Below are positions 5,939 to 46,731 of a stretch of DNA of 46,731 nt, piece after piece. Position 1 is the stretch's first letter, and the number at the start of each line of letters is the position of its first letter. The stretch covers positions 1 to 46,731 of the IMG/VR virus record IMGVR_UViG_3300046009_004019. One strand, 5' to 3'. The notes under the pieces are model-generated. The model was not told the DNA's origin and searched no databases. It saw only the letters and a program-made list of their open reading frames with translations. Source of the DNA: a virus (lineage: Duplodnaviria; Caudoviricetes). The position numbers were made by a program, and so were the translations under genes.

Positions 5939-5948
5939 AGGTTTAAAC

Positions 5949-7244
5949 ATGCCTAGTACATATTCACCCAACCTCGCGTTGGAACTTATTGGAACCGGCG
6001 ATCAGGCGGGTACTTGGGGTAACACCACCAATACCAACTTGGGAACCCTGATTGAGCAGGCTATCAGCGGCTACGAGGTTCAGTCCCTGACCTCGGGAAC
6101 CACCCTAACCCTGACCATTCCCAATGGTGCATCTGGCGTAGCCCGAAACATGTACTTGGAGTTCACGGGTAACGGCAGCACGGTCATTGTCCCGTCCAAT
6201 AAAAAACTCTACTTCGTCTACAACAACTGCACCTCCGGCACGATCACAATGAAGGTCGCTGGCCAGACCGGTGTAACAATCCCCAATGGGGAAAGAATGG
6301 TTTTGGTTTCCAACGGAACCGATGTAGATGAAGCCATCACGATTGAATCCTTGACTGGCATCACCACTAGCACAGTCACCGCTTTTGGCAGTGGCGCTGG
6401 CGACAGTGTCACAAGCGCAACAGGCACTACCGCAATTGGAAAGAATGCCGGGACAGCGATTACAAGCGGCATTTCAAATACTTTCGTTGGTGAAGAAGCA
6501 GGATTAGTTTGCACCGATGGCATTCTGAATACGGCTATCGGGCTTGCTGCATTAAGTTCTTTAACAAGCGCAAGCGGCAATAGCGCAATCGGTTGGTTTG
6601 CTGGAGCCGGAATTACAACTGGCTTTAGAAATACTGCTATTGGTAGAAGCAGTATGTCTGCCTGTACGACGGGTGGGTTTAATACTGCGCTTGGAACCGA
6701 TGCGCTTGATAGCACCAATTACGATAATACAACTGGCGTTGGCTCAGGTTCGGCAGTAACAGGAGACAATCAAGTTCAATTAGGCGATTCAGCAACAACG
6801 ACTTACGCCTATGGCGCTGTTCAAAATCGTTCTGATTCGCGTGACAAGGCCGACATCCAAGACTCAAACCTTGGGCTTGCTTTTGTAATGCAGTTACAGC
6901 CGCGCATGTTCCGCTGGGATATGCGAGAAGATTACAAACCGCCTAAACCAGACGAAAATGCCTCCCCAGAAGAATGGAGCGCATGGAGTGAGGCTTGCAA
7001 ACTTGCCAATCTAACTCATGACGGAACACATAAACGCAGCCGCTTCCACTATGGCTTGGTGGCCCAAGAAGTCAAAGTCACGATGGATGCGATGGGCGTA
7101 GATTTTGGTGGTTATCAAGACCACAGCATCAAAGGTGGCGATGCCGTTTTATCGCTCGGCTACGAAGAGTTGATAGCCCCATTGATCAAGGCCATCCAAG
7201 AACTCAAAACCGAGTTCGATGAGTACAAGAGGACGCACCCATGA
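5949..7244 (+). CDS. Tail fibre/spike with C-terminal intramolecular chaperone (peptidase S74)
   Basis: MPSTYS..L.LELIGTG.QAGTWG..TNTNL N-terminus, NTA(I/L)G beta-roll repeats, and SDSRDK...GLVAQEV...LIAPLIKAIQELK S74 domain. Confidence 0.9.
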   Translation: MPSTYSPNLALELIGTGDQAGTWGNTTNTNLGTLIEQAISGYEVQSLTSGTTLTLTIPNGASGVARNMYLEFTGNGSTVIVPSNKKLYFVYNNCTSGTITMKVAGQTGVTIPNGERMVLVSNGTDVDEAITIESLTGITTSTVTAFGSGAGDSVTSATGTTAIGKNAGTAITSGISNTFVGEEAGLVCTDGILNTAIGLAALSSLTSASGNSAIGWFAGAGITTGFRNTAIGRSSMSACTTGGFNTALGTDALDSTNYDNTTGVGSGSAVTGDNQVQLGDSATTTYAYGAVQNRSDSRDKADIQDSNLGLAFVMQLQPRMFRWDMREDYKPPKPDENASPEEWSAWSEACKLANLTHDGTHKRSRFHYGLVAQEVKVTMDAMGVDFGGYQDHSIKGGDAVLSLGYEELIAPLIKAIQELKTEFDEYKRTHP

Positions 7245-7726
7245 TGACAATGGTTTCAACCTTCTTGTCTTTCCTCGCTGGTGGATTGCCCAAGATCCTG
7301 TCGATTTTTCAAGATAGACAGGACAAGAAGCATGAGTTGGCTCTGGTTGCAGCCCAGAAGGAGCGCGAACTTGCATTGGCAGAGCGTGGTTTTTTGGCTC
7401 AGGCGCGGGTTGAGGAAATCAAACTGGAGCAGATCCAGACCCAAACCGCAGCCGAGGAGCGTCAGGCTCTGTATCAGCACGACATCGAAATTGGCAAAGG
7501 CGCATCCCAGTGGATGATCAACCTTCGTGCCTCGGTGCGTCCGGTTGTGACCTATATCTTCGTGTTGGAACTGGTCGCCATCAATATCGCCGGAGTCTGG
7601 TATGCCTATAACACCGGGGTGCCGTTTGCCGCTGCGATGGCTGAAGTATTCTCTGATGACGAGATGCTAATCCTGTCTTCGATCATTGCGTTCTGGTTCG
7701 GAACACAGGCGTTCGGCAAGAAGTGA
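7241..7726 (+). CDS. Putative holin (3-TM type)
   Basis: Hydrophobic N-terminus, coiled coil, then RASVRPVVTY and two TM segments ending FWFG. Directly upstream of the lysozyme. Confidence 0.7.
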   Translation: MMTMVSTFLSFLAGGLPKILSIFQDRQDKKHELALVAAQKERELALAERGFLAQARVEEIKLEQIQTQTAAEERQALYQHDIEIGKGASQWMINLRASVRPVVTYIFVLELVAINIAGVWYAYNTGVPFAAAMAEVFSDDEMLILSSIIAFWFGTQAFGKK

Positions 7727-8211
7727 AAGTCTCCAAGGCTGCCATCGATATGATTAAACACCACGAGGGCGTAAGGACTAAGCCTTACCGCTGCCCTGCG
7801 TTGTTGTGGACTGTCGGTGTCGGCCATGTGATCGACTCAACCCATGCGACGGTGAAGTATGAGGAGCGTCGGAATCTACCGATACCCGAGGGATGGGATC
7901 GTACTCTCGCGATGGACGAGGTGGACCGGATACTTTCTCAAGACCTTAGCCGGTTTGAGCGTGGTGTGGTTCGACTTTGCCCTGCTGCTGTTGGCCGTCA
8001 GGGAGTCTTTGATGCTCTCGTATCTTTTGCCTTCAACGTGGGTCTCGGCAATCTCCAACGCTCTTCCCTTCGGATGAAGACCAATCGCGGGGAACTGGAA
8101 GAGGCTGCTGACGAGTTCCTGAAATGGACGAAAGCAGGTGGACGGGTATTGCCCGGACTGGTTAAACGGCGCAATGATGAACGTGCGTTGTATTTGTCTG
8201 GAGTAGCGTGA
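7723..8211 (+). CDS. Endolysin, GH24 lysozyme
   Basis: HEGVRTKPYRCPALLWTVGVGH (E-x8-C-x5-T triad), FDALVSFAFNVG, W.KAGGRVLPGLVKRR..E. Confidence 0.95.
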   Translation: MKVSKAAIDMIKHHEGVRTKPYRCPALLWTVGVGHVIDSTHATVKYEERRNLPIPEGWDRTLAMDEVDRILSQDLSRFERGVVRLCPAAVGRQGVFDALVSFAFNVGLGNLQRSSLRMKTNRGELEEAADEFLKWTKAGGRVLPGLVKRRNDERALYLSGVA

Positions 8212-10523
8212 TGCCGCTGTCCAAGGTTGTATTTAAGCCGGGTGTTAACCGAGAGACCACGAACTACGCCAACGAAGGTGGGTTCTTCTCGGTAGACAAG
8301 GTCCGGTTCCGGGGCGGGTATGCCCAGAAGATTGGCGGCTGGGTTAATCAGAGTTCCAACGGAGGATCATTTGAAGGCGTACCCCGTTCACTGTGGAACT
8401 GGGTGGCTATTGCTGGCCAGAACCTGTTGGGCGTTGGAACCAACCAGAAATACTATGTAGAACTGGGTGGCACTTACAACGACATTACCCCTCTCGCCAG
8501 CACGGTCAGCCTGACTCTGAATCCGTTCACGACCACCTCTGGTAGTCGGAGCATTGTTGTCAGATCAACTGCTCACGGAACCACTATCGGTTCTTATGTG
8601 ACATTTACTGGTGCCAGTTCCTTTGTTGTTGGTGCATCGACCCTGTTGGTCAATGGCCAGTACGAAGTTATTTCGGTTCCCGGTTCAGATACTTTTACTA
8701 TCTTCGGCCCATCTATTGCCGCTTCGACTGTAACCGGCGGTGGTTCCCACGTCATAGCCGCTTATCAGATTGATGCAGGTCCAGCCGTTTACACGACTCA
8801 GGTTGGCTGGGGTGGTCCTCCTTGGGGTTTTGGAGGTTGGGGGTCATCTGACCCACAAGGTGTTCCATTGCGCCTTTGGTCCCAGTTCAACTTTGGAGAT
8901 GACCTGATATTCGCTGAACGGCGCGGGTCAATCTATTACTGGACCATTGACACCACGACATGGGCTAGAGCCACGACTTTGGCTGACAAAGCCGACAGCA
9001 TTACCAAGTTTTCGACAGTGGCCACAGCAGCCTCTGGCGCAACCACTATTGTCGTAGCCGATGCGACTGGCATTAACACCGGATCGGTAGTATCTGGTAG
9101 CGGTATTGCTGCTGGAACCTATGTCACTACGTCATGGACCGGTGGACAGTCTGTCACTATCTCTGCAGCCACTACGTCTTCATTGACGCTGACTGCTGTT
9201 GATTTCAGTTACGCCGGTCGGCATGTTCCACCGCAAACCAACTTAGTGATCGGTTCTCCGCTGAACGATTTCACCATCGCTCTGGGTTCCAATCCATACA
9301 GCCCGGTGGATTTCACGACTGACTTTGATCCGCTGTTGGTTCGTTGGTCAGACCAAGAGAATCCATGGGAATGGGTTCCCGAAGTCACCAACCAATCTGG
9401 TGAGCGTCGCATATCCAGTGGATCTGAAATCGTTGCAGGTATCTCAACTCGTCAGGAAATCTTGGTGCTGACTGATACTGCTGTGTTCTCCATGCAGTAT
9501 CTGGGTCCGCCGTTTGTCTGGGGATTCAATCTCCTCGACCAAGACATTTCCATTGCGTCCCAGAACGCGATTGCATCCATCAACAACACCGTTTACTGGA
9601 TGGGAACCGATAAGTTCTTCGTCTACAACGGTCGCGTTGACACACTGCCTTGCACCATTCGACAGCACATCTTTAGCAACCTGAACCAAGATCAGATTGC
9701 TCAGGTGACCTGCGGTAACAACGAGGCGTTCAGTGAGGTGTGGTGGTTCTATCCATCCACCAATAGTTACGTCAATGACAGTTTCGCGGTGTTCAACTAC
9801 CTTGAAGGTGTCTGGACATACGGTAGTTTAAACCGCTCTGCATTTGCTCCTCAGACCATCCGCAAGTACGCGATGATGGCCTTTGGTATTCAGACTAGTT
9901 ATCTGGATACCGCTATCAATTCTTCTATCACGACTATCTCTCTCGTCAATGCATCGTCCTATCCCAATTCTGGAATCGTTCAGATCGATTCAGAGAAGAT
10001 CAGTTATACCGGTCTTAGTGGTAATACTCTTACCGGTTGTGTTCGCGGTGTTGGCGGTACAACTGCTGCTTCGCACACCATCGATACTGAGGTCTCGTTT
10101 GTCGCGCCGAATCAGGTGATGTTCCACGAAGTCGGCTGGGACGATGTTTCGACGGGAACCCCTGAGCCAATTGAATGCTTCATTCAGACTTCTGATTTTG
10201 ACATTGGAGACGGCGAGTCATTCCAGTTCCTTTCTCAGATCATCCCTGATGTGAAGTTCCTTGAGTCGGACACGGTAAGGAACCCAAACCCGTCTGTAAC
10301 GCTGGCTCTATATCCCAGAAACTATCCGGGTTCTCTGTATGGTGATCCGGATACAGGTGCTGTTACCGCGACGGTAGTTCTCCCTGTGGAGCAATACACC
10401 ACACAGGTCTACACCCGTGTTCGCGCAAGACAGATTGCGTTCCGAATTGCATCCACCGCACTGGGTGTGGCATGGCAGATGGGTGCGATGAGATTCGACA
10501 TTCGCCCGGATGGTAAACGGTAA
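8208..10523 (+). CDS. Tail nozzle / head-closure (tail tubular B / stabilisation-like) protein
   Basis: 771 aa, MPL.K..FKPG.NRE.T.Y..EGG....KVRFR N-terminus, propeller-like VRWSDQE, YWMG...F.VYNG and EVWWFYP motifs, C-terminal R.DIRPDG.R. Located just before the ejection genes. Confidence 0.7.
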   Translation: MMPLSKVVFKPGVNRETTNYANEGGFFSVDKVRFRGGYAQKIGGWVNQSSNGGSFEGVPRSLWNWVAIAGQNLLGVGTNQKYYVELGGTYNDITPLASTVSLTLNPFTTTSGSRSIVVRSTAHGTTIGSYVTFTGASSFVVGASTLLVNGQYEVISVPGSDTFTIFGPSIAASTVTGGGSHVIAAYQIDAGPAVYTTQVGWGGPPWGFGGWGSSDPQGVPLRLWSQFNFGDDLIFAERRGSIYYWTIDTTTWARATTLADKADSITKFSTVATAASGATTIVVADATGINTGSVVSGSGIAAGTYVTTSWTGGQSVTISAATTSSLTLTAVDFSYAGRHVPPQTNLVIGSPLNDFTIALGSNPYSPVDFTTDFDPLLVRWSDQENPWEWVPEVTNQSGERRISSGSEIVAGISTRQEILVLTDTAVFSMQYLGPPFVWGFNLLDQDISIASQNAIASINNTVYWMGTDKFFVYNGRVDTLPCTIRQHIFSNLNQDQIAQVTCGNNEAFSEVWWFYPSTNSYVNDSFAVFNYLEGVWTYGSLNRSAFAPQTIRKYAMMAFGIQTSYLDTAINSSITTISLVNASSYPNSGIVQIDSEKISYTGLSGNTLTGCVRGVGGTTAASHTIDTEVSFVAPNQVMFHEVGWDDVSTGTPEPIECFIQTSDFDIGDGESFQFLSQIIPDVKFLESDTVRNPNPSVTLALYPRNYPGSLYGDPDTGAVTATVVLPVEQYTTQVYTRVRARQIAFRIASTALGVAWQMGAMRFDIRPDGKR

Positions 10524-11122
10524 TGGGCGCACCTCGCGGACTAGCCCCTCCAAACCTTCCGGTCGCTGCTGAAAAATACGAGCGGCGATATCAGGATCAG
10601 TTCGCGAATGTGTTACGACTGTACTTTGCAGCCGTTTCAAACCGGCTGACATCACCTACAGCGCATGCCTCGTATTTCGACACCACTACCCAGACCAATC
10701 CGGTAGCGGATACTGTCAACCTGTTTACCTTTAACTCAGTTGAATCTGAGTTCCAGATTAAACGGGGTGTTCCCACATCCAAGATCTACGTCAATGACAC
10801 TGGTGTCTATAACTTCCAGTTCTCGGCACAGTTAGATAAGTCAGGTGGATCTGCCAGCGCCGTTTACATTTGGCCAAGAATTAACGGGGTCAATGTTTCA
10901 GATTCGGCTACCAAGATTGTTATTGACGGGCCAAACAATGAGATCGTCCCTGCGTGGAACTTCCTCCTAGTGATGGAGGGAGGAGACTATTTTGAACTGG
11001 CTTGGCAATCATCTGATACGGCAGTAATTGCTCCTTACTCAGCCCCAAGTGGGAACATCCCCGGTATTCCGTCCATCATCTTGACGGTCAACTGGGTGTC
11101 CAATTATGAGGCTAACGAGTGA
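10523..11122 (+). CDS. Putative small tail protein with C1q-like C-terminal domain
   Basis: PPNLP.A...Y....QDQF.NVLRLYF N-terminus and a GVYNFQFSAQL...GDYFELAW beta-sandwich pattern. Confidence 0.55.
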   Translation: MGAPRGLAPPNLPVAAEKYERRYQDQFANVLRLYFAAVSNRLTSPTAHASYFDTTTQTNPVADTVNLFTFNSVESEFQIKRGVPTSKIYVNDTGVYNFQFSAQLDKSGGSASAVYIWPRINGVNVSDSATKIVIDGPNNEIVPAWNFLLVMEGGDYFELAWQSSDTAVIAPYSAPSGNIPGIPSIILTVNWVSNYEANE

Positions 11123-11127
11123 TCTCA

Positions 11128-11156
11128 TTGAAATTTAAACGCTGTTACACCAGAAT
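11128..11156 (+). promoter_or_regulatory. Possible sigma70 promoter for the ejection-protein cluster
   Basis: TTGAAA-N17-CAGAAT in a 72-nt intergenic gap; ATTTAAAC overlaps the -35/spacer. Confidence 0.4.
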
Positions 11157-11194
11157 CGCGGGAACCGTGGCTCCCAGCAATCATAGGAGTTGCC

Positions 11195-12655
11195 ATGAAT
11201 AACATGCCATATCAGGGAGTTGCGAACGAACTTGCCAAGTACGGCAGATTCGGAGATTCTCAGTTAGTACATATGAACCCGATTGAGGTTCAGATGCTGG
11301 GGTCTTTGTCCCCCACCGGACAACTCACGATTAACCCGGTTACCGGTCAGCCTGAGGCGTTCCTTCCCTTCCTCGCCCCATTGCTTGGATCGTTCTTGGG
11401 AAGCAGCCTTTTAGGCGGTTCCACACTTGGCGGACTACTAACCACTGGCCTTAGTAAGGCAGCGGCAGGGGCCATTGGGTCTGGTCTTGCCACTACCGCA
11501 GCCACAGGCGATCTTAAGGAAGGCATCCTCTCTGGCATCACCGGTTTTGGTTTAGGCAAAGTCTTTGGCGCTATGGGCGGCGCAGACAAACTGGCTGGCG
11601 CTGCTGGATCAACGCCGACACCAGCCAATGTGGAAGGATTCTTCTCCCCGACTGGCGGCGGTGCCGCGCTTAATCAGGCTACCACTGCGACTGCTCCCAT
11701 CCTTGCTGGCGCTCCAACTTCCGCCCCTGTTGGTGGATTCTTTTCGCCAACTGGCGGGGCTGCTGCATTTAACCCGGTTAATGCGGCTCAGTCTGCAGCA
11801 GGCGCTGGTCCGGGTGGCATGAACTTTTCGGCTGGGCTTGAAGAACTGATGAAGCCCGGTACTTTCCTTCCCATCTATGCGGGAACCAGTGTCACTGAAG
11901 GCATTCGTCAGCAAGAAGAACTGGATCGCATCATGAAAGAGCAGGGACTCAGCGAGGAAGAAGCCAAGCGTAAGTACGAGGGAGATGCTCGTCGCGCTAT
12001 TGAAACCGCACAGCGGTTGTACCCGCAGATGCGTCCTCCCACTGGAATGGCGGCAGGCGGTCAAGTCGAAGGCTACTTCGACGGCGGCATGTTTACCGAT
12101 ATGCAATATCGTGGTCCCTTTGCCAATATGCAATCTAGTGGGCCAGATTCCGGCTTCTACGACACCGTATACGGTCGTAGCAGTCCGTCTGACATCCAAG
12201 GCCGACTCCGTGGAAACATCAGCGTTGCTGCCCCGTATGCCAGTTATGGCGCACTGGATGTAGGCGGTCGCGGATATCTTCCGGGTATCGCCCCGGAGTT
12301 CCAATACTTCCGTCAGCCTGAAGAAATCTATCCGCAGGCTCCGTCCATGCCCGGTGGCAAGGGGTCAGGTGGTCGTCGTGGCGGCAATTACGGCGGCTAT
12401 AACAGCATGCCCGGTGGTAAGGGTGGCGGCTATGGTGGTGGCTACGGCAACCAGTTCGGCGGCGGTTACGACTATGGGAACCCCTTCGGTGGTGGCTACG
12501 GCGGCGGCTATGGAAGCATGCCGGGCGGCAAGGGCGGTGGCTATAACACTGGTTATGGTGGCGGCTACGGCAATACGTTTGACCGATACAGCCAGCCTTA
12601 CAGCAACTATGGTGGAAGTTCCTTCGGTAACTTCAACCAGATCATGCCGTTTTGA
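11195..12655 (+). CDS. Internal virion (ejection-type) protein with G/Y-rich low-complexity C-terminus
   Basis: GRFGDSQLVHMNP.E...TINPVTG.PEAF motif, a Gly/Ala/Leu hydrophobic segment, and a SMPGGKG/GGGYG repeat tail. AGGAG RBS. Confidence 0.65.
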   Translation: MNNMPYQGVANELAKYGRFGDSQLVHMNPIEVQMLGSLSPTGQLTINPVTGQPEAFLPFLAPLLGSFLGSSLLGGSTLGGLLTTGLSKAAAGAIGSGLATTAATGDLKEGILSGITGFGLGKVFGAMGGADKLAGAAGSTPTPANVEGFFSPTGGGAALNQATTATAPILAGAPTSAPVGGFFSPTGGAAAFNPVNAAQSAAGAGPGGMNFSAGLEELMKPGTFLPIYAGTSVTEGIRQQEELDRIMKEQGLSEEEAKRKYEGDARRAIETAQRLYPQMRPPTGMAAGGQVEGYFDGGMFTDMQYRGPFANMQSSGPDSGFYDTVYGRSSPSDIQGRLRGNISVAAPYASYGALDVGGRGYLPGIAPEFQYFRQPEEIYPQAPSMPGGKGSGGRRGGNYGGYNSMPGGKGGGYGGGYGNQFGGGYDYGNPFGGGYGGGYGSMPGGKGGGYNTGYGGGYGNTFDRYSQPYSNYGGSSFGNFNQIMPF

Positions 12656-12664
12656 GGTACTGAC

Positions 12665-14191
12665 ATGAGTATGGGAAATAGAGCCAGTGCGCCTCCGAGT
12701 AAGGGAGGTGCTGTTCCGCCAACTAATCCTCAGGTGCCAAATCCTTATGGAGATCAGGGGTATCAGCCTCCGCAGCGATACTCCAACGACTACTTCCGCT
12801 ATCAACAAAGTGGAGAGCCGTTTAACCAGCCTGTAATGGGATATGGAACCTACGGTCAGATCTTTACTCCGCCTCCCCAGCGATTCCAACCTCAACCCAT
12901 AATGGGAGGTAAAGGTGGTATGGGGTATCGCCCATCTCCTCCAGTTCCGCCACCGGGTGGCAAAGGCGGTGGCATGAGCGATATGCAGTATCGTGGGCCG
13001 CAACAACCGCCAACCATAGGTGGCAAGGGTCAGCCGCAAAACCAAGGCCCATTCATGTCTTATCCGGGCGGTAGTGGTTATGGTGGTCTTACAGCAAGGC
13101 CGGGTAGCGGCCCTCCTCGCGTACCACGGACTCGTCAGTTAGGTTTGAATGAGCCTACTGGTCCGGGTCCAATGGATGTGCAGACGAATCCTTCTCCGCC
13201 CTTGATTACAGGCGGGGTTCCACAGGAATACGCCTATCCCACTAATCAGCAATCTATAATCATGCCGGGGCAGCAGGCTGCTCCTGCCACTACGGACGTT
13301 GGCATTAACCAAAGAAACCCTGCGTATCAACAGCAGCAAGCAGCCTCCAACATGAGTCCTTATCAAAGACTCATGATGCAAGATCAAATGCGCGACCAGT
13401 TCGGGTCAAATGATCTGGGTCTTGGTCTTGGCCCTATGCGAATGCCCAAGGCTAGTGACTTAGAGATCGCTAGATCATTAGGGTACACCGGAGGCCCCGG
13501 ACCTATTAGAGACATGCGGGCTAGGTTGCCTGAAGAATATGAGCGGGAAAACCAAGAAAATAATCGTCTTGCCAGAGATTATTTAAACAGCATTGGTTAC
13601 GGTCAGTCTGGTTTTGATTCTTCTAAATATGAAGTTAGGCCCACTCGCTCTGGGCCAATAAACTTTGGTGGCCTTGCTGCAGGCTTGGCTTTCCAAGAAG
13701 GCGGCGAAATTCCAAACTCCGCCCAAAACATGGAAATGATGTTGTCTGAAGCAGGCCCTGCTAATCCTCAGGCTGAAATGTCTGGCGAATATGACCGGCT
13801 TATTCAGATGACGATGCAGGCAGTGCTGGGTCAGGTTGAACAACCGGATGAAATCATCCAGATGTTCATCGATGAGTTCGGCGTGGATGCCTTCCGTCAG
13901 TTGCGTGATGCGGTCCTCAAGCAACAAGTTCCCAACGCCCAGACCGAAGGCATGGTCGATGGCAACGGCGGTGGCATGGATGATCAGGTGATGGGCATGA
14001 TCGGCGCACAGCGTCCGGTTGCCGTATCGCCCGGTGAGTACATCATCCCGGCTGATGTCGTGTCAGGCTTAGGCGATGGTAGTTCCAAGTCCGGTGCTGA
14101 CATCCTTGATGAACTGAGCCAAGCCGTTCGCATGACTCGCACGGGAACCACTGAGCAGCCCCGTCCCTTGATGGAGACGCTTAGTCAATGA
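12665..14191 (+). CDS. Internal virion protein, P/Q/G-rich with conserved C-terminal GEYIIPADVV motif
   Basis: Low-complexity N-terminus. C-terminal GMDD.V...I....PVAVSPGEYIIPADVVSGLGDGSS..GA..L motif, similar to that in tape-measure and ejection proteins. Confidence 0.6.
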   Translation: MSMGNRASAPPSKGGAVPPTNPQVPNPYGDQGYQPPQRYSNDYFRYQQSGEPFNQPVMGYGTYGQIFTPPPQRFQPQPIMGGKGGMGYRPSPPVPPPGGKGGGMSDMQYRGPQQPPTIGGKGQPQNQGPFMSYPGGSGYGGLTARPGSGPPRVPRTRQLGLNEPTGPGPMDVQTNPSPPLITGGVPQEYAYPTNQQSIIMPGQQAAPATTDVGINQRNPAYQQQQAASNMSPYQRLMMQDQMRDQFGSNDLGLGLGPMRMPKASDLEIARSLGYTGGPGPIRDMRARLPEEYERENQENNRLARDYLNSIGYGQSGFDSSKYEVRPTRSGPINFGGLAAGLAFQEGGEIPNSAQNMEMMLSEAGPANPQAEMSGEYDRLIQMTMQAVLGQVEQPDEIIQMFIDEFGVDAFRQLRDAVLKQQVPNAQTEGMVDGNGGGMDDQVMGMIGAQRPVAVSPGEYIIPADVVSGLGDGSSKSGADILDELSQAVRMTRTGTTEQPRPLMETLSQ

Positions 14192-14634
14192 ACGCTGCCG
14201 TTCAGGAAATGCAGACCTATGTGTCGCTAATTCCGTCAGCGCACATTGAGTATGCTTGGGCCGCCTTGGCTCCTATGCTGGAACCGGCTGTGGAGCGGTC
14301 TCATGGTCGTTGGACTATGGACCACATCATGGAATGGGCTATTCGAAACGAGAAACAGATTTGGATTGTGTTTGACGAGGACAAGACGATTCATTGTGTA
14401 GCCGTCACACAGAATGTCATCTACCCTACCAGCAAAATGCTCTCCATCGAATTTCTCGGTGGCGCTGGTTTGGATAAATGGGCATTTAAACTTCTTGATG
14501 TCCTGAACAATTGGGCGAAGGACAGCGGATGCAACGGTATCGAAGCCACCGCAAGGATCGGCTTCTGGAAATGGCTTGAGAAAGACGGTTTCGATAAAGC
14601 CTATACGGTGTTCGAAAAGAGGTTTGAACAATGA
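14188..14634 (+). CDS. GNAT-fold acetyltransferase-like virion assembly protein
   Basis: 148 aa, L.I.FLGG.GL..W...L..WAK..GC..IE...R.G.W.KWL...GF, typical of GNAT-like genes in podovirus ejection clusters. Confidence 0.7.
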   Translation: MNAAVQEMQTYVSLIPSAHIEYAWAALAPMLEPAVERSHGRWTMDHIMEWAIRNEKQIWIVFDEDKTIHCVAVTQNVIYPTSKMLSIEFLGGAGLDKWAFKLLDVLNNWAKDSGCNGIEATARIGFWKWLEKDGFDKAYTVFEKRFEQ

Positions 14635-35103: not shown

Positions 35104-35134
35104 CAGGGTCTCCTCTTGGAAATCAACGAGTGAC

Positions 35135-35608: not shown

Positions 35609-35620
35609 TTGGAGAACAGT

Positions 35621-37811: not shown

Positions 37812-37870
37812 CTCTTCCTTTGCCGCCGTCTTGCACTGACGGGATTGGACGGCGACTAGGGTGGATTACT

Positions 37871-38059: not shown

Positions 38060-38202
38060 GCTATCACTCCTCTGGTAAAACTATTTGCCCAATCAATGCA
38101 TTCTTCACGGGAACCTTTCCAGTATTTAAACGCCTCGCCGTGGGTGAATGCGACCCATCGATCCTTCCAGATGCGGCCCGGACATGGGAACACCCAGACC
38201 AT
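38056..38202 (-). CDS. Hypothetical protein (start uncertain)
   Basis: Fills the gap and is ATGA-coupled at its 3' end; the frame stays open further upstream to 38304. Confidence 0.45.
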   Translation of the reverse strand: MVWVFPCPGRIWKDRWVAFTHGEAFKYWKGSREECIDWANSFTRGVIA

Positions 38203-38228
38203 GGGGTTCCCGTCCGAATCGGCAAAGG

Positions 38229-38558
38229 TCAGTGCTTGGTCATCGGTGCGTTCGACAATTTGTCCATCATGATTCGGGACACATAAGCCGCCACTGATCC
38301 GCATTCTTCCGCCTCCTCAGCATCATCTGTTTCCATGGCGCGGATCGCCAGAGTCCGTGCGAAGTCCGCGATCAGGCTGATCACGGCCACATCGGAGAAC
38401 TCCATGCGCTCCAAGTTTTCAGGGACAATATCGAAGGCGAGTCCACCCTCAATCGTCACTGCTTCAATGGCACAAGCCAGATCGATGTTTTGTTGGTGAT
38501 ACCAAGACTCGGGATAAATCTCCCCGTCCTGCGGGTTCAAAAAGAATCTGGTGTTCAT
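38229..38558 (-). CDS. Hypothetical protein
   Basis: 109 aa, acidic, GAGGT RBS. Confidence 0.7.
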   Translation of the reverse strand: MNTRFFLNPQDGEIYPESWYHQQNIDLACAIEAVTIEGGLAFDIVPENLERMEFSDVAVISLIADFARTLAIRAMETDDAEEAEECGSVAAYVSRIMMDKLSNAPMTKH

Positions 38559-38570
38559 CGTTTAAATACC

Positions 38571-38774
38571 TCAGAACGGGGGACCAATGGGTTCATCTTC
38601 CTCGCCACCCCATAACTGACTCTGATGCTCGGCCAGTACGGAGTCAATGCGATCAATTTTTTCCATCATCTTCGACAGGTCATGCTGTATCCGCATGATC
38701 GCGTATGCCACAGCGGGGTCAAGTCGAAGACCTTTGACCTCGCGCTCCAAGTATTCGATATCTGAAAGGTTCAT
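38571..38774 (-). CDS. Hypothetical protein
   Basis: 67 aa coiled coil with acidic ...PPF tail; AGGAG RBS. Confidence 0.7.
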   Translation of the reverse strand: MNLSDIEYLEREVKGLRLDPAVAYAIMRIQHDLSKMMEKIDRIDSVLAEHQSQLWGGEEDEPIGPPF

Positions 38775-38965
38775 GCTCTGCTCTCCTGCTTTGCTCGTTG
38801 TACTTCAAACCATTTGCGGGTGATGTCATCGGTCAGTTGTCGAGTCCGCATGTTGTACTGCTTCCGCAGCAATTCAAACTTGTTGACCTCGCGTTCTAGT
38901 TCCACCTTCAGCATGCGGTACTCAGCATCCAGTTGCTCAACGTAGGGGTCGGTCAATCGTTCCAT
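38771..38965 (-). CDS. Hypothetical coiled-coil protein
   Basis: MERLTDPYVEQ..., GGAGG RBS; start trimmed relative to the track ORF. Confidence 0.65.
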   Translation of the reverse strand: MERLTDPYVEQLDAEYRMLKVELEREVNKFELLRKQYNMRTRQLTDDITRKWFEVQRAKQESRA

Positions 38966-39048
38966 GTTGCGATCCTCCATGCGACGATCAGCATCAGGGG
39001 AATGAGTGCCATGCGCGGCAGGTAAAACAAGAAGTCTTCCCATGTCAT
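38953..39048 (-). CDS. 31-aa single-TM membrane peptide (not in ORF track)
   Basis: MTWEDFLFYLPRMALIPLMLIVAWRIATWND*, GAGGTG RBS, first ORF after a strong promoter. Confidence 0.6.
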   Translation of the reverse strand: MTWEDFLFYLPRMALIPLMLIVAWRIATWND

Positions 39049-39074
39049 GTTGCACCTCTGTTCTAATGTTGTGA

Positions 39075-39103
39075 AGTATAGTTGTTTAGATGTTAGTGTG
39101 CAA
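39075..39103 (-). promoter_or_regulatory. Sigma70 early promoter
   Basis: TTGCAC-N17-TATACT, followed by TCACAACA as in the 41536 promoter (TCGCAACA). Confidence 0.8.
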
Positions 39104-39107
39104 GGGG

Positions 39108-39887
39108 TCAGGCGGCAATCGCCGCCCTCTCCCAGAGTTGCTGCACGGTGCGGTTCGCACGATCCGGTGTTGCGTACTCACCGCCACTGATCACCGGGAT
39201 GGTGAGGTGGAACTCGTTGCACTCCTCTGCGTAGTGCGTCGAGTAACCGTACGAGGGAACATACTTCGGGGTCATGAACTCCAACACCCGAAAGAAGAAC
39301 CGTCGCAGCATGATCGGAGTCGCGAAGGCAAGACCAATCCGATCCATATCGACCGGCTCTTCGGGACGTTTAACCGTCACGCTCCAGATGAACTTGTCAT
39401 TGCCAGAGTAGCCGTGCTTGAAGGCGATCAGTTCCACGCGACGACCACTGAGTTGGATGCGGTCGATCAGTGTCACAATCGCAGCGCCGCGATTGACGAA
39501 CTCTTGCGCTTCGATACCGGCACTGCCCGACATGTTGACCGCGATCCGCACAATCGGCTGCGAGACCGGCGGTGCGTCTTCAGTCGCGACGAACATGTCT
39601 TCGGGGATACCCGCGGCGTAGGCCGGAATGCAGGGGAACGCGCCCACTGGGGCGACATCCCACAGCGGCTCCGGTGCGGAGGTCACCTTGACCGCGACTG
39701 ACTCCATGGCGGCACGGGCAACCGGGTGACCCTTGACTGCGTAGTCGAGGGCTTGATACCAAAAATCGCAGCCAGACCATGAGGCATTGTTTTCAGCCTC
39801 TGAACCGCCCATTTCCCAGTTGACCTTTCGGTTGCGAAGATCGTTTACGAACTCATCCCATGAGTCTGCGTTGTAGCGGTAAATCAT
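39108..39887 (-). CDS. vWA-like partner of MoxR ATPase (CobT-like)
   Basis: VGAFPCIPAY.AG.PE.M, VRIAVNMSGSAG (degenerate MIDAS), RGAAI..L.D.....G.RVEL, LRR.FF. Confidence 0.7.
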   Translation of the reverse strand: MIYRYNADSWDEFVNDLRNRKVNWEMGGSEAENNASWSGCDFWYQALDYAVKGHPVARAAMESVAVKVTSAPEPLWDVAPVGAFPCIPAYAAGIPEDMFVATEDAPPVSQPIVRIAVNMSGSAGIEAQEFVNRGAAIVTLIDRIQLSGRRVELIAFKHGYSGNDKFIWSVTVKRPEEPVDMDRIGLAFATPIMLRRFFFRVLEFMTPKYVPSYGYSTHYAEECNEFHLTIPVISGGEYATPDRANRTVQQLWERAAIAA

Positions 39888-40888
39888 GCGGCAATCCTCT
39901 TCGGTAAGTTGGAGCGAACCTTCTCAACGTCGAGCGGCGACATCCCGCGCAGCAGCAACATCTCTTCGACGCGATCCCACTTGAGACCGGCAGAGAGCAA
40001 CTTACCGCCCTTGATCGATGCGCGGGGCGAAACCACTGCGCGAATCTTCAACTCGCGGACAGTGCGACGGAATGCCTGAACATGGCGCGTCCACTCGTCA
40101 TTGGGCGAGATCGCCAGTTCCAGTCGCTCGTCGTAGTCCATCGACACGAACGCGAAGCGGTCGAGCGTGGCTGCGTCGAGTTGAGCGCGGCCAACGTACT
40201 GAGCATCAGCACCGCTGCCCCAAGTGTTCGCAGCGGCAATGATCACGAAGTCCGAATGGCGTTTAACCGTGCCGCAGGGGAATGCGGCGAGGTCATTGGC
40301 AGCGATGGCGTTGAAGGCAAGCAATGCTTGTGCAGACGACGCATCGATCTCATCGAACAGGAACACGCCGCCGCCGACATAGGCGCGGTACAAGTCAGTC
40401 ACCATGTACTTGCCTTCGGCGTTGATGAATCCCTGCAACTGGTACGCCATGCCGACAGCGCCAGTCGAGTAGAACGGCAAGCCCAGTGCTTCGGCGCACT
40501 GCGAGGCGAGGGTCGTCTTACCGGAACCGGCAGGGCCGACAAGGTAGACGTTCTCGCGAACGGACAGCGAGGCCAGTACATCCGGAAACACCGGGTGACG
40601 GTGACCATTCGGCAGGACTTTGATCTCAGCGCCCTGCTTGATTTCGATGCGAATCGGGCGGTGCTGTTCGACCGCAGCGACAGCGGCAGCGACGGCATCC
40701 TTGCGGATCGATTCGATGGTCGCAGCATCCAGAGCCGCAGCAGGAACTGGGGCAGGATCAACCCCGTTCCAGATCGACAGCAGGACATCGTCCGGTGCGT
40801 TCGGCGACTTGCCCTGTCGCACGGCATGCATCTTGAGGTACGAGCGGTCGCTGTCAGACAGCGGGAGCGAGAAGGTACGCTTGGACAT
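39884..40888 (-). CDS. MoxR/CbbQ/CobS-family AAA+ ATPase
   Basis: Walker A GPAGSGKT, Walker B FLFDEID, AAANT.G.G....YVGR..LD.ATLDRF, VSPR. GGAGG RBS at ATG 40888. Confidence 0.9.
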   Translation of the reverse strand: MSKRTFSLPLSDSDRSYLKMHAVRQGKSPNAPDDVLLSIWNGVDPAPVPAAALDAATIESIRKDAVAAAVAAVEQHRPIRIEIKQGAEIKVLPNGHRHPVFPDVLASLSVRENVYLVGPAGSGKTTLASQCAEALGLPFYSTGAVGMAYQLQGFINAEGKYMVTDLYRAYVGGGVFLFDEIDASSAQALLAFNAIAANDLAAFPCGTVKRHSDFVIIAAANTWGSGADAQYVGRAQLDAATLDRFAFVSMDYDERLELAISPNDEWTRHVQAFRRTVRELKIRAVVSPRASIKGGKLLSAGLKWDRVEEMLLLRGMSPLDVEKVRSNLPKRIAA

Positions 40889-40890
40889 GA

Positions 40891-41502
40891 TCAGCCCTCC
40901 ACGTTGAGTGAGTTGATGCTGCTGCAAACCGGGCAAGCCGAAGCAGCGTGTAAACGGTGCGCTTGCATGGCAGAGACACGAGCCGTCCAGTTGCAGGAAC
41001 CGCACTGCAGTTTCAGCAGCCGAGTGCCCTGCTTTTTACGGGCATTCGGGTCAACCTTCGCATGCGGGTACGAACCCAGTTGATCGACGATGCGTTCCAA
41101 CTTGCCGCGCAGTTCGGCACTGGGAACCGTTGCGGTCATGGGGCCGACAAGGCCAATGGCGCGACAGACACGGGCGAACTCGCCACGATGGCCGCACTGA
41201 ATCCCTGCCCAGACATGGGCGAGTTCATGAGCCAGAACCGCGATCACATCGACCGGCTTGTCGAGAATCGGGTTGATGAACACTTCGAACGTGCCGTCTG
41301 CAGAGATCGACGGGTCGAAGGCTTGGCCCAAGGTCACCTTGCCGGTGCGTGAGCCGCGATAGCCAATCGGGAAGCCGCAAGCGACCCGATACTTGCGTTG
41401 TTCCCATGACACCGCATCGACAGCGGCGACCGGGAAAATCTCGTGCTGCAGCATGACTGCAGCGGCGGCAAGCCATGACTCGCGTTCGTTGAATTTGACC
41501 AT
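40891..41502 (-). CDS. SprT-like zinc metalloprotease with C-terminal Zn ribbon
   Basis: LAHELAH......GH.GEF...C..IGL, then CGSC...CPVC; GGAG RBS. Confidence 0.85.
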   Translation of the reverse strand: MVKFNERESWLAAAAVMLQHEIFPVAAVDAVSWEQRKYRVACGFPIGYRGSRTGKVTLGQAFDPSISADGTFEVFINPILDKPVDVIAVLAHELAHVWAGIQCGHRGEFARVCRAIGLVGPMTATVPSAELRGKLERIVDQLGSYPHAKVDPNARKKQGTRLLKLQCGSCNWTARVSAMQAHRLHAASACPVCSSINSLNVEG

Positions 41503-41535
41503 GATTCTGTTCTCCATGTTGTCGGTATGTTGCGA

Positions 41536-41565
41536 AGTATAAACGCTGCGTTGTGTCGCAGTCAA
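41536..41565 (-). promoter_or_regulatory. Sigma70 early promoter
   Basis: TTGACT-N18-TATACT just downstream of the ribozyme. Confidence 0.75.
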
Positions 41566-41582
41566 CTTGTGTAAACGGTGAC

Positions 41583-41661
41583 GGTCTCGTCAGTACCCGC
41601 ATGACGGGCAGACATCCCGGCCTGTTGGCGATCAAGCCCGAAGGCGCGGGATGTTTCGACC
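41583..41661 (-). ncRNA. Hammerhead ribozyme, type II
   Basis: Minus strand: GGUC GAAA CAUCCCG [insert] CGGGAUG UC / UGCCCG UCAUG CGGGUA CUGACGA GACC. All core nucleotides and three stems are present; predicted cleavage after the C at 41611. Confidence 0.93.
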
Positions 41662-41669
41662 TAGAATTG

Positions 41670-41855
41670 CTACGCAATAATTTCCACGCCTTCTGCATCA
41701 ATTCGAAGGCGTTCGATTGGCTCATCCGTAACGTCAAACACTTCCCACCCTGTCACCTCACTGCCGATTAATTCGTCAAATTGCCACTTGACTGGGGGAT
41801 AAAAGTCTTCGCTTTCGTCCAGTTCGATATGAATCACAACTGCATACTTTTTCAT
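41670..41855 (-). CDS. Hypothetical acidic protein
   Basis: 61 aa, AGGAG RBS. Confidence 0.7.
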   Translation of the reverse strand: MKKYAVVIHIELDESEDFYPPVKWQFDELIGSEVTGWEVFDVTDEPIERLRIDAEGVEIIA

Positions 41856-41870
41856 GATTTTCTCCTGCGT

Positions 41871-42068
41871 TTAAATGCTGAACAGATAGTCATTCGAAAA
41901 ACCGGGGACTCGTACGTCCACTTGAACACCCATGCGGCGAATTTCCGTGAGGTTCTGGGCATCGAAGGTTTTCTGCTTCATCAGTGCAGCGAAGCGTGAT
42001 GCGAGTTCGTTGAGCGGGTAGTACTTGATCTGCCCGTAGATATGGCGCTGTTCGACTTGAATGATCAT
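41871..42068 (-). CDS. Hypothetical early protein
   Basis: I.V..R.IYG...YYP.N..A..FA.L...KTF....L..I..MG; ATGA-coupled, GAGGTG RBS. Confidence 0.75.
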   Translation of the reverse strand: MIIQVEQRHIYGQIKYYPLNELASRFAALMKQKTFDAQNLTEIRRMGVQVDVRVPGFSNDYLFSI

Positions 42069-42229
42069 GACTTGGACACCTCATTGGCTGAGAAAAGGCA
42101 AACGAGCGCGGCTGCTACCGCGATCAGCGAGGGGATGCCGACACCGCCAGACTCGGCGGCGATCAGAACGCCAAGACCCATCTGGATCATGGCGAGATAT
42201 TGGAAACAAGCGACGAGAATGATTTTCAT
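42065..42229 (-). CDS. 54-aa two-TM membrane protein (not in ORF track)
   Basis: MKIILVACFQYLAMIQMGLGVLIAAESGGVGIPSLIAVAAALVCLFSANEVSKS*; GGAG RBS; first gene of the early transcript. Confidence 0.7.
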   Translation of the reverse strand: MKIILVACFQYLAMIQMGLGVLIAAESGGVGIPSLIAVAAALVCLFSANEVSKS

Positions 42230-42250
42230 GCTGCTCTCCAGTGTTGTTGT

Positions 42251-42291
42251 GACTCAGTGCAGCGTCCTCGACGAGGGCGCTCTACTCAGTC
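42251..42291 (-). other. Long imperfect hairpin before the first early gene (RNase III-site-like)
   Basis: 19-nt arms GACTGAGTAGAGCGCCCTC / GAGGACGCTGCACTGAGTC with symmetric mismatches. Confidence 0.5.
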
Positions 42292-42292
42292 G

Positions 42293-42490
42293 AAGGTTTT
42301 TCCGGTTCGTTGGGCATCGTCAGACTTTCGGGCGGCTGCTGTACTTGCAGGTCATTGCCTTCAACCCTACGGCTTCACCGATGCTTTAGGCCGGGTTCCC
42401 CTTTCGGGAACCGCCGGGCTGCTTGCGCTCATCCGGCACCAGAACCTCTCTTATTCGCCTACCGGCTGCGGCTGTCTGGGGGCCGCTTGG
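42293..42490 (-). ncRNA. Putative structured leader RNA
   Basis: About 200 nt with no credible ORF; GNRA-capped hairpins at 42394-42412 and 42413-42437 plus enclosing helices. Confidence 0.5.
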
Positions 42491-42495
42491 TTCGT

Positions 42496-42525
42496 ATTAC
42501 ATTCGATTTCATGATCACTTGTCTA
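42496..42525 (-). promoter_or_regulatory. Probable first early promoter
   Basis: TAGACA-N18-TGTAAT with an upstream A-tract (UP-element-like). Confidence 0.55.
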
Positions 42526-42688
42526 CAACTTTTTTCGTTTACACGACCACAAATTACCTAAGTCACTGATTTTCGGTCGAATTTAGTTTGCGGTTAAACA
42601 GTCCAAAAGGTAGGATTCGGTGAGCGATCATGGTCTATACATGATCAAAGATTATCGAAACCACTGCAAAACAAGGGCAGAACGCACA

Positions 42689-43237
42689 ATGGCAGGCATG
42701 ACAGATGAATACGGGTTGACTGCAAAACAGCGTAAATTCTGCGAGAACGTGATCAGCGGCATGAATCTCGCGGAGGCATATCGCAATTCATACGATGCCG
42801 AGAACATGAAGCCAGCGTCAGTGCAGAAGCGCGCAGCGGAACTGATGGTGGACGGGAAGATCAAGGGGTGCCTGCAGGCTCTAGCAGCGGTCAGGAGGCA
42901 GCAGAGTGAGGCTCTGACGATCTCTGACAGAGACATGCTCGTCTCTCTGCTCCGCAAGTGGTCGAAGGGTGACGAGTCTGCTACCAGTTCCCAGTTGAGA
43001 GCCGCAGAGTTACTGGGCAAGGCATGCGGACTCTATCGGGACGTTGTCGAGGATCACCGTGAGCGCCCATCGACATTGGTAGCGGCTGAGTTGGAGGCGA
43101 GGCTAGCGTCTATGCTGCAGCCTTCGGTGCATCCTCAGGCTTCCGCAGCAGTTCCAGTGCAGGACGCAGCGCCTTTGGAGCGTGTAAACGTAGCCGATTC
43201 GCATGATGACGCTGCGAGTTCCAACGTAACTCATTGA
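42689..43237 (+). CDS. terS: Terminase small subunit
   Basis: LTAKQRKFC...ISG.N..EAYR.SY......ASV...A.EL...ELLGK; upstream of terL. Start uncertain (frame open from 42620). Confidence 0.85.
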   Translation: MAGMTDEYGLTAKQRKFCENVISGMNLAEAYRNSYDAENMKPASVQKRAAELMVDGKIKGCLQALAAVRRQQSEALTISDRDMLVSLLRKWSKGDESATSSQLRAAELLGKACGLYRDVVEDHRERPSTLVAAELEARLASMLQPSVHPQASAAVPVQDAAPLERVNVADSHDDAASSNVTH

Positions 43238-45219: not shown

Positions 45220-45443
45220 TGAAAGGTCGCACTGAAACGTCCGACAAGGCGATGGCTCCCAAGAGCCGCAAGCAGCCCAAGGACAAACTCAAAGGAAAGA
45301 TGTCGGGCATTGGTGAAGCGGCGATGGTCGCGGGTGCCAAGCGTCCGGTTAAGATGTACGGTGGCTCTATGGTTCCGGGAACCAAGGGCACCGCTCGCGG
45401 AATGGGCGCTGCCAAGAAAGGCGGCAAGTTCACCGATCTCTAA
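45219..45443 (+). CDS. Small basic protein (possible DNA-condensing internal protein)
   Basis: 74 aa, K-rich, ARGMGAAKKGGKF C-terminus; TAATG-coupled. Confidence 0.65.
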   Translation: MKGRTETSDKAMAPKSRKQPKDKLKGKMSGIGEAAMVAGAKRPVKMYGGSMVPGTKGTARGMGAAKKGGKFTDL

Positions 45444-45454
45444 GGAGATTCGAC

Positions 45455-46731
45455 GTGGCGGTTGATCGTGCATTGATGCCCTTCATAACCCAAGGGCAGG
45501 GGATGGAAATCTCGGTTCTCCCACCGGAGGACGATTCCATCATGGTGGAACTTCCCGATGGTGGGATGGAATTGCAACTCGGACCCGAGCAGCAAGCCGC
45601 CGCCCATGATGACAACCTAGCCCAGTACCTTGACGACAACACCCTATCGAACATAGCCACGGAACTCGTGGCCTTGTTTGATGCGGACAAAGATTCCCGT
45701 AAAGAATGGGAACAGACCTACATGAAAGGTCTGGATCTTCTTGGATTGAAGATCGAACAGCGAACTCAGCCATGGGACGGAGCCTGTGGCGTGTTCCACC
45801 CGATGCTCTCGGAAGCCGTCGTTCGCTTCCAAGCGCAGTCGATTCAGGAAATCTTTCCGGCTAAAGGCCCTGTTGAAACGAAGATCTTGGGTCAACAAAC
45901 CCCAGAGCGTATGCAACAGGCCATGCGCGTTCAGGACTATTTAAACTATCTCCTGACCGAGAACATGAGCGAGTATCGATCCGAAACGGAGAAGATGCTG
46001 TTCTCATTGGCGATTGCCGGATCGGCTTTCCGCAAAGCGTACTTTGATCCGAATCTCGGAAGACCCACTTCCATCTTCGTTCCCGCAGAGGATTTCGTGG
46101 TTTCTTATGGAACCCCGGATCTGTACACCTGCGAACGTGCTACGCATGTCATGAAGAAGACCCCCAATGAAGTTCGCAAACTTCAGGTGTCTGGCTTCTA
46201 TTTAGATGTGGAACTGGCGGAGCCGACTCCGGATATCAGCGATATCCAGAAGAAGTACGACAAGATGAATGGAGATGCGGCCATTGATCTAGATGGTCGC
46301 TACACGCTCCTTGAGATGATGATCGATTACGATCTTCCGGGATTTGAAGACACGATTGACGGGGAACCTTCGGGCATTGCGTTGCCCTATGTCATCACTA
46401 TCGACAAGGGTTCCCGCACGATTCTCTCCATTAGACGTAACTGGTACGAAGGCGATCCGCTCAAGAAGCGCCGCCAGCATTTCGTTCATTACGTTTATCT
46501 GCCGGGACTCGGCTTCTATGGTTTTGGTTTGGTCCACATCGTCGGTGGCTTGGCAAAATCCGCCACCTCCATCCTCCGCCAATTGGTCGATGCGGGAACC
46601 TTGTCTAACCTTCCGGGCGGATTGAAAACTCGCGGACTCCGGATCAAAGGCGACGACACACCCATCATGCCGGGTGAGTTCCGTGATGTGGACATTCCGT
46701 CCGGAACCCTACGCGAAAACATCACCTTCCT
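45455..46731 (+). CDS. Portal protein, 5' part (truncated by window end)
   Basis: GTG after AAGGAG; NLA.YL...D.DSRKEWE.TY.KGLDLLG...PW.GACGV.HP.L.EA.VRFQA...GFYG.GL...LRQLVDAGTLSNLPGG. Open to the window end. Confidence 0.92.
   Translation, partial: MAVDRALMPFITQGQGMEISVLPPEDDSIMVELPDGGMELQLGPEQQAAAHDDNLAQYLDDNTLSNIATELVALFDADKDSRKEWEQTYMKGLDLLGLKIEQRTQPWDGACGVFHPMLSEAVVRFQAQSIQEIFPAKGPVETKILGQQTPERMQQAMRVQDYLNYLLTENMSEYRSETEKMLFSLAIAGSAFRKAYFDPNLGRPTSIFVPAEDFVVSYGTPDLYTCERATHVMKKTPNEVRKLQVSGFYLDVELAEPTPDISDIQKKYDKMNGDAAIDLDGRYTLLEMMIDYDLPGFEDTIDGEPSGIALPYVITIDKGSRTILSIRRNWYEGDPLKKRRQHFVHYVYLPGLGFYGFGLVHIVGGLAKSATSILRQLVDAGTLSNLPGGLKTRGLRIKGDDTPIMPGEFRDVDIPSGTLRENITF

Follow-up and report, generated by a model that had tools for sequence, protein, structure and literature searches.

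A dispersed octamer array in an uncultured tailed phage: candidate genome-wide operators of an autoregulated SprT-like protein

The window analysed here, that is, the whole 46,731-nt stretch of the virus record IMGVR_UViG_3300046009_004019 (IMG/VR; Caudoviricetes), carries 30 dispersed copies of the octamer GTTTAAAY together with a gene for a SprT-like protein, which combines a zincin domain with a zinc ribbon. We somewhat favour the reading that the octamers form the genome-wide operator set of the phage's own autoregulated SprT-like repressor. New here are SprT-bearing phages that lack the array, a natural knockout among the relatives, the overlap of sites with the sprT promoter, and an array of GTGTAAAC in temperate actinophages of clusters AZ (Arthrobacter) and EH (Microbacterium).

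The octamer is a DNA-level site under selection

All 30 positions of GTTTAAAY reported in an initial annotation of the window were reproduced exactly, and the one-mismatch variants that it had named are all present. The array consists of the following:

5941..45946, no strand assigned: extent of the core array, from counts, shuffles and retention in relatives
Core GTTTAAAY sites, first half of the 30: 5941, 9826, 11133, 13581, 14484, 17004, 18553, 19993, 20798, 21680, 23071, 23482, 24400, 25862, 27362
Core GTTTAAAY sites, second half: 28284, 29187, 30206, 32101, 32722, 34289, 35222, 36081, 37198, 37460, 38124, 38560, 41869, 43238, 45939
2642..43189, no strand assigned: 16 one-mismatch sites of the same family (11 GGTTAAAC, 5 GTGTAAAC), from word counts

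By form, seven of the core sites are GTTTAAAC and 23 are GTTTAAAT or ATTTAAAC, while ATTTAAAT does not occur, and 32 of the 33 TTTAAA hexamers in the window are flanked by G (or C) on one side or both. The rough expectation of about two copies was borne out, as 37 matches were counted on both strands versus 1.9 in 100 dinucleotide shuffles (largest 7), an over-representation of ~12- to 19-fold. Most copies are genic (23 of the 30), as previously noted, and the proposed codon-preserving control gave 1.98 ± 1.34 genic sites (maximum 8) in 1000 synonymous-codon shuffles that keep both protein and codon usage. Protein sequence and codon usage therefore do not explain the array, and dipeptide or codon bias is ruled out as its source. 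The genic copies had been described as lying in different frames; more than one frame is indeed used, but only two of the three, namely x-TTA-AAY (14 sites) and TTT-AAA (9 sites), the third being unused because the octamer would there be a stop. The octamer fills 14 of the 21 compatible x-Leu-Asn contexts and 9 of the 22 Phe-Lys pairs in the window. Genic sites show no strand bias (10 versus 7 in gene orientation), and no consensus flanking the octamers was found in the window.

Spacing was more regular than random, with a coefficient of variation (CV) of 0.61 for the core gaps versus 0.95 (P=0.0026) and only 3 gaps below 600 bp versus 10 expected (P=0.0004). Gaps of 0.8-1.6 kb are indeed the commonest (18 of 29). 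Among the one-mismatch words of the same family, GGTTAAAC occurs 11 times, GTGTAAAC 5 times and GATTAAAC 6 times. When the first two are added to the core array (46 sites in total), the early region holds 1.55 sites per kb versus 0.72 elsewhere (P=0.008), an approximately 2-fold difference.

The word is also conserved in relatives: at aligned sites it is kept in 11 of 15, 9 of 16, 5 of 12, 6 of 14, 6 of 13 and 7 of 13 cases in six related phages, against a background of just 8-18% identical aligned 8-mers. Sites alternate between the C and T forms across relatives, which indicates that the word itself, and not the local sequence, is selected. Over whole records, relatives G001, G006 and G008 contain 32 (56 kb), 38 (59 kb) and 30 (53 kb) GTTTAAAY sites, the range for SprT-bearing relatives being 30-38 in 52-59 kb. 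The motif follows the clade at primase identities of ~70-97% and falls off below ~52%. Shuffles, spacing and conservation thus agree with the original proposal that the octamers are most likely DNA-level sites, under selection, for a dimeric protein.

The array travels with the zinc ribbon of a SprT-like protein

The protein that follows the array is encoded near the right end of the window:

40891..41502, minus strand: SprT-like gene (sprT), inferred octamer binder, from profile, alignment, structure prediction and promoter analysis

Translation probably begins at the ATG at 41502, and residues are numbered below from a query that starts at 41505. The protein is laid out as a zincin domain with HELAH and a third His, followed by KKQGTR and a four-Cys zinc ribbon. 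No other of the 52 window proteins has a homologue in each of the seven motif-rich cultured phages compared, and the binders suggested initially (TerS, the polyvalent protein and the small proteins at 30758, 32764 and 34864) have none there.

Among 164 cultured-phage records with a SprT match, 23 were selected by us for examination. All 15 phages whose SprT bears the Q-x-T-R element carry 4-42 GTKTAAAC sites: R5C 17, Venkman 35, Stuff 42 (0.05 expected), Bas97 6, Persinger 4, Alexa 9 (first 40,000 of 40,237 bases), Yang 20, Percival 16, Liebe 17, Emotion 17, Zeta1847 22, LazerLemon 41, Arya 7, 4A 14 and Honk up to 33. By contrast, all eight phages with a SprT lacking Q-x-T-R carry 0 or 1 (Dismas 0, Epa43 0, CN1 1, Franklin22 1, Vitas 0, BAjuniper 0, Gack 0, MW2 1). 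The last 12 of the 23 were picked before sites were counted, and split 7/7 and 5/5. The word used is GTGTAAAC in actinophages and mostly GTTTAAAC in the others. In the eight motif-negative SprTs HExxH is kept and the Q-x-T-R stretch is replaced. These phages form two groups, cluster EB-type and Mesyanzhinovviridae; on a protease-domain tree, loss of Q-x-T-R takes three changes (bootstrap 2-4), one of which is forced by well-supported branches. As a separate observation, CCTGGGC is over-represented in the Mesyanzhinovviridae Epa43 and CN1 (L249-L255; 143 versus 25 and 91 versus 23), which may be codon-driven.

The relation was also examined in the reverse direction, starting from viral contigs with two GTTTAAAC copies 40-70 bp apart (139 stretches in 5/64 parts of the collection, of which 80, i.e. 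66 distinct contigs longer than 4 kb, were used). A SprT or ribbon was found in 23 of the 29 contigs with at least five further sites, in 3 of the 8 with 2-4, and in 0 of the 29 with 0-1 (P=1e-10). Two of those 23 SprTs lay elsewhere on the record and the whole record was checked for 4 of the 29 site-poor contigs, so that the like-for-like comparison is 21/29 versus 0/29. In the forward direction, the Q-x-T-R peptide pattern retrieved 599 stretches, of which 540 were confirmed relatives (~940 estimated in the collection), and all 79 new loci, many of them close kin, hold at least one site, mostly far above expectation.

Among the densest arrays, several (23-38 further sites within 8-18 kb) are accompanied by SprTs with a dead HExxH or by stand-alone ribbons of 55 residues, which suggests that DNA binding alone can sustain an array. 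The stand-alone Q-x-T-R ribbons L326, L332 and L340 and the HExxH-less SprTs L275, L310, L316 and L331 have very dense GTTTAAAC and an octamer in their own promoter region, and would be the simplest material for binding assays.

Sites at the sprT promoter and at gene starts

The region upstream of sprT contains these elements:

41536..41565, minus strand: sigma70-type promoter of the sprT operon (TTGACT, 18 bp, TATACT; 10/12), from sequence
41569..41576, no strand assigned: GTGTAAAC site ending 3 bp upstream of the sprT -35 hexamer, from sequence
41537..41544, no strand assigned: GTATAAAC site, the sole copy in the window, overlapping the sprT -10 hexamer, from sequence
42537..42599, no strand assigned: pair of family sites in the gap where terS and the leftward early genes diverge, from sequence

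A leftward promoter-like element adjoining 42537 was noticed by eye only. In other phages the octamer likewise lies in the promoter spacer, over the -10 box or near the sprT start. Within -30 to 150 of that start it was found in 36 of 106 loci versus 13.2 expected. Out of 112 loci examined for promoters, 43 had a promoter-like element and 21 had both a scorable promoter and a site; in 16 of these 21 the octamer falls within -50 to +15 of the predicted promoter versus 7.8 expected, several rows being from the window's clade. Autoregulated DNA-binding proteins usually have sites on their own promoter, and the sites on the sprT promoter are the usual signature of such a protein. Moreover, sites within 60 bp of a gene start make up 10 of 20 in Yang (P=0.001) and 10 of 16 in Percival (P=0.0001).

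A natural knockout

The complete close relative G007 (TerL 93% and primase 80% identical) lacks sprT and the AAA ATPase and DUF7192 genes downstream of it. It has 16 core sites in 60 kb and keeps only 3 of the 12 aligned window sites. Among the lost sites are 35222, 36081 and 37198. These three are retained by every one of the six SprT-bearing relatives, four of which are more distant in their primase. Strong promoter-like elements contain the octamer in 6 of 12 cases in four SprT-bearing genomes of the clade (~1.2 expected) versus 0 of 6 in G007. The sprT-less relatives G002 and G010 have 0 and 5 core sites, respectively.

39108..41005, minus strand: AAA ATPase and DUF7192 genes, downstream of sprT, from profile search and relatives

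These two genes are lost with sprT in G007, but were rejected as the binder since motif-rich phages of other families do not share them. In its early region G007 encodes an ArdC (L185:3392-4264; ArdcN plus MPTase-PolyVal domains).

Predicted structure of the SprT-like protein

Sequence profiles place the protein in PHROG 6361 (E=4e-32), while Pfam PF10263 scored 19 bits, under its cut-off of 25.6. No solved structure was matched by the sequence. The AlphaFold model (predicted local distance difference test score, pLDDT, 87) shows a zincin domain joined by a linker to a small beta/zinc domain. Its best fold match is SPRTN (Z 7.6, root-mean-square deviation 3.4, 99 aligned), equalled by 4jiu and below the caution line of Z 8; minigluzincins and Wss1 (Z 6.2) are the next nearest folds at modest scores. 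The best Foldseek match had E=0.011, and an Atlas search with the zinc ribbon gave only scores below 0.9.

A homodimer was predicted with a score of 0.72, the best control reaching 0.00, and the models agree in at least 98% of contacts with pLDDT of at least 85. Of 30 solved dimers, 20 reach the mark used, as does 1 of 23 single chains; this calibration is rough for the alignment and zinc used here. The predicted interface comprises residues 6-13, 40-51, 63-82 and 148-156, the last directly before KKQGTR, and dead-protease forms retain its motifs. The SprT-like protein is thus predicted to be a homodimer with the zincin domain as dimer core.

A proposed repressor and its operators

It is very probable that the SprT-like protein binds the octamer directly, and probable that it represses its own promoter, whereas damping of transcription by the distant intragenic sites is an even call. 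In the proposed mechanism the predicted dimer would read GTKTAAAY with its two zinc-ribbon arms, would repress its own promoter and would block transcription across the genome. In the temperate AZ and EH relatives it would then be the immunity repressor; in the window phage, shut-off of early genes or maintenance of a silent carrier state would be the likelier role. Release might, speculatively, be triggered through the conserved protease site. Repression is favoured because of the promoter overlap, the arrays that persist without catalysis, and the actinophage data.

As to the latter, cluster AZ phages are described as forming homoimmune lysogens with a repressor that is not known (PMC8758107, in the text available), and a preprint puts SprT forward as a candidate (10.1101/2025.05.26.655371). 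In that study Liebe, whose SprT is N-terminally truncated, forms clear plaques, whereas those of Maureen are turbid. Part of the predicted dimer interface would be missing from the truncated Liebe protein. The main text of that preprint names no binding site and contains TAAAC and TTTAC 0 times, and TAAAC, TTTAC and SprT occur 0 times in the main text of PMC7302621, which deals with other repeats in Microbacterium phages. In PMC12363180 SprT-like proteins appear only as SPRTN look-alikes. A literature search, which did not extend to supplements or most subscription journals, turned up no paper connecting a SprT protein with a DNA site. A strand bias of sites in AZ/EH phages (e.g. 15 versus 2 in Emotion) is not interpretable, because one orientation contains an in-frame-capable TAA.

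A number of points weigh against an operator array. Only 7 of the window's 30 core sites are close to a gene start (P=0.11), and a late 8.4-kb gene holds 7 core sites deep inside, where a transcription block would be costly to a lytic phage. The catalytic residues H93, E94, H97 and H106 are invariant in 52 of 52 close homologues, which means that the protease has a task beyond what repression calls for. The phage looks non-integrating, neither an integrase nor a repressor was found among the listed ORFs (open reading frames) plus 14 scanned ORFs of the complete relative G006, R5C is reported to be lytic and without integrase (PMC5454422), and Bas97 carries a CI-like gene of its own. Liebe and Maureen differ in three further changes. 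The 16 sites of G007 still exceed the 2.4-3.6 expected, and this phage also lacks other genes, including that of the small protein at 32764. Six of the 29 motif-rich contigs gave no sprT match (five are 18-35% complete and one is complete), and loci inside one lineage are not independent.

Comparison with known systems

KorB of IncP plasmids acts as a dimer on palindromic operators scattered over the plasmid, of which some lie immediately before -35 boxes and others within genes. The array resembles it in the predicted dimeric protein and in such dispersed operators, including genic and -35-adjacent ones; KorB, unlike the SprT-like protein, is a ParB-family helix-turn-helix (HTH) protein with a partition role, and no resemblance between the two was seen. 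HIP1 is an over-represented octamer that is selected at the DNA level inside genes and read by the host, and Chi-rich lambdoid phages reportedly carry an over-represented octamer read by a host enzyme. The present array is alike in being made of DNA-level selected octamers inside genes, but those are read by host enzymes, whereas the octamer here follows a phage gene across host phyla. SPRTN and Wss1 are structure-specific DNA-protein crosslink proteases and are not known to read a sequence. They resemble the predicted structure of the present protein in the SprT-type zincin fold, though at modest scores, and in a C-terminal zinc-binding part, and are its top structural matches (PDB 6mdx, 5xbn), whereas here a defined octamer co-varies with the zinc ribbon. 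A SPRTN-like function is what the accessible text of the AZ preprint predicts for the AZ/EH SprT-like protease (Lizalica gp46; 10.1101/2025.05.26.655371).

A parallel in distribution is offered by the stoperators of cluster A mycobacteriophages, bound by the L5 and TipsytheTRex repressors. More than 20 sites are dispersed through the phage genome, at and away from promoters, and a block of both initiation and elongation has been proposed (PMC9283540, available text); here there are 30 core sites, or 46 with variants. As described in that text, stoperators are asymmetric 13-mers oriented with transcription, located in promoters and short intergenic gaps, and bound by a monomeric HTH repressor, whereas the octamer is an unoriented 8-bp quasi-palindrome with 23 of 30 copies inside genes and a predicted dimeric zincin-zinc-ribbon protein as binder. 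Because these three defining features differ, the array is not a member of that system. ArdC, as far as its description in the available text of PMC7213743 goes, is likewise a DNA-binding zincin-domain protein of a mobile element, but it binds single-stranded DNA and has the domain set ArdcN plus MPTase-PolyVal.

Alternative explanations

The array could instead be an address label: an active SPRTN/Wss1-like protease would be anchored to the phage DNA at intervals of 1-2 kb and would cut host proteins loading, scanning or trapped there, autorepression merely setting the protein level. We consider this unlikely, though it is the main rival, and it is in this changed form of a DNA-addressed protease, not in the original one, that the self-marking role proposed initially survives. 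Even spacing is what coverage by a tethered protease would be expected to give, and spacing is more even than random in the window, Stuff, Yang, Percival, R5C, G001 and G006 (P 0.03 to <0.0001); for G001, G006 and G008 the core sites alone are not significantly even, and with the two variants added G001 and G006 become so and G008 does not. The best fold matches and the invariant catalytic residues fit this idea too, as does the finding that the early region of G007 encodes ArdC, which is a DNA-binding anti-restriction metallopeptidase, in place of SprT, and that a Pfam Antirestrict protein gene is next to sprT in CN1. The ArdC substitution is weak evidence, however, because the early region swaps genes freely. 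Dense arrays persist in lineages whose protease is dead or absent, the sites of Venkman are clumped in one genome half (CV 1.85), and Bas97 is reported to be highly sensitive to restriction-modification despite its SprT and 6 sites (PMC11990801). Tethering and repression may coexist. Likewise unlikely is a widespread system in which the zinc ribbon reads an octamer that phages of different bacterial phyla have in common, and so places an active SPRTN-like protease at intervals of 1-2 kb on the phage genome, where it would both switch lysogeny and clear host proteins from the DNA by cutting them.

A purely structural use of the same binding, i.e. bridging, compacting or positioning replicating phage DNA, is improbable: it would suit the even spacing, the lack of strand bias in the window and in Stuff (21 versus 21) and a dimer with two arms on linkers, but not the fact that in several phages sites are concentrated at gene starts and at the promoter of sprT, nor the mere 4-8 sites in some. 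Even less probable is that a host protein, a methyltransferase or the packaging/ejection machinery reads the sites and SprT merely travels along. The residual excess in G007 and the one complete motif-rich contig without a sprT match (29% GC, 5 further sites versus 1.4) speak for another reader. Yet the same word occurs in phages of Actinobacteria and of several proteobacterial hosts, where it tracks a six-residue element of one phage protein, and phages of the same host strain differ. Percival has 16 sites and Dismas 0 on one such strain, making the host mimicry suggested at first unlikely. E. coli K-12 has one copy of the 10-mer CGTTTAAACG versus 12 of the reversed control, and no methyltransferase family was matched among 54 scanned ORFs of the window, which is an incomplete genome. 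The role in packaging or ejection that had also been suggested is unlikely because the array occurs with unrelated terminases in podo-, sipho- and myovirus-type genomes (morphotypes taken in part from annotation). The octamer does not behave as a restriction-modification site either, being over-represented rather than avoided; AGCT, with a single copy in the window, shows what avoidance looks like.

If the operator reading is true, it assigns a DNA target to a common phage family annotated solely as 'SprT-like protease', introduces a repressor architecture without HTH, made of a zincin dimer core and zinc-ribbon readers, and names the immunity repressor of two groups of soil phages, clusters AZ and EH. 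The published question of the AZ/EH immunity gene becomes testable, as the cultured pairs Liebe/Maureen and Percival/Dismas exist. Furthermore, because phages of both Actinobacteria and Proteobacteria have kept the octamer, cross-talk would be expected when unrelated ones meet in the same cell.

The phage and its relatives

The phage is uncultured and encodes a T7-like primase-helicase and a TerL 54% identical to that of Pelagibacter phage HTVC027P; from its gene content, its habitat is probably freshwater. Complete relatives measure 59-60 kb and contain portal and capsid genes that are missing from the window, hence the window is an incomplete genome. No close nucleotide match was found among cultured phages and no close prophage in GTDB genomes. 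Three genomes counted for the motif showed no enrichment, and a SprT gene was found in 0 of 401 genomes (0.6-1.6 Mb) of one class, a count that had no positive control and is no test of the host. A motif count in 201 genomes of that class, sampled at 0.6-1.6 Mb, is uninformative on the phage's host. Core sites are absent from window positions 1-5940, which hold tail-fibre and 2OG-Fe(II) genes shared with the sprT-less G007 and the near-identical G004 and mostly absent from G001 and G006. This suggests a recently acquired block.

Several further sequence patterns were observed. AGCT, nearly absent from the window, has 0 copies in G001, G006, G009, G011, G012 and G002, and is common in G007 (213) and G008 (88). 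This is a strong lineage-specific avoidance of a restriction site, which could help host identification. GGGAACC/GGTTCCC words are over-represented throughout the window and also in G006 and G012, with CGGGAACC present 21 times versus 2.5 expected. The polyvalent protein (18645-27101, 2818 amino acids) has ART-PolyVal and LPD38 domains and a middle part that varies among relatives. Primase relatives L105/L106 (G007), L128, L131 and L144 have other enriched words, namely AGGTGCAA, AGTTGCAC and AAATTTGG. In relatives at 62-68% TerL identity (L039:1273-8817, L015, L022) a different dispersed palindrome with an AACAWTGTT core occurs in the early region only; G002, which has neither sprT nor GTTTAAAY, carries 17 copies of this core (L039 corresponding to G002:C1 ~44965-53826). 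Finally, long palindromic repeats lie upstream of terL every ~1 kb in L021:127-8664 and L037:1225-8953 and clustered in L034:1242-2748, and, with a word of its own in each phage, these look like separate operator arrays.

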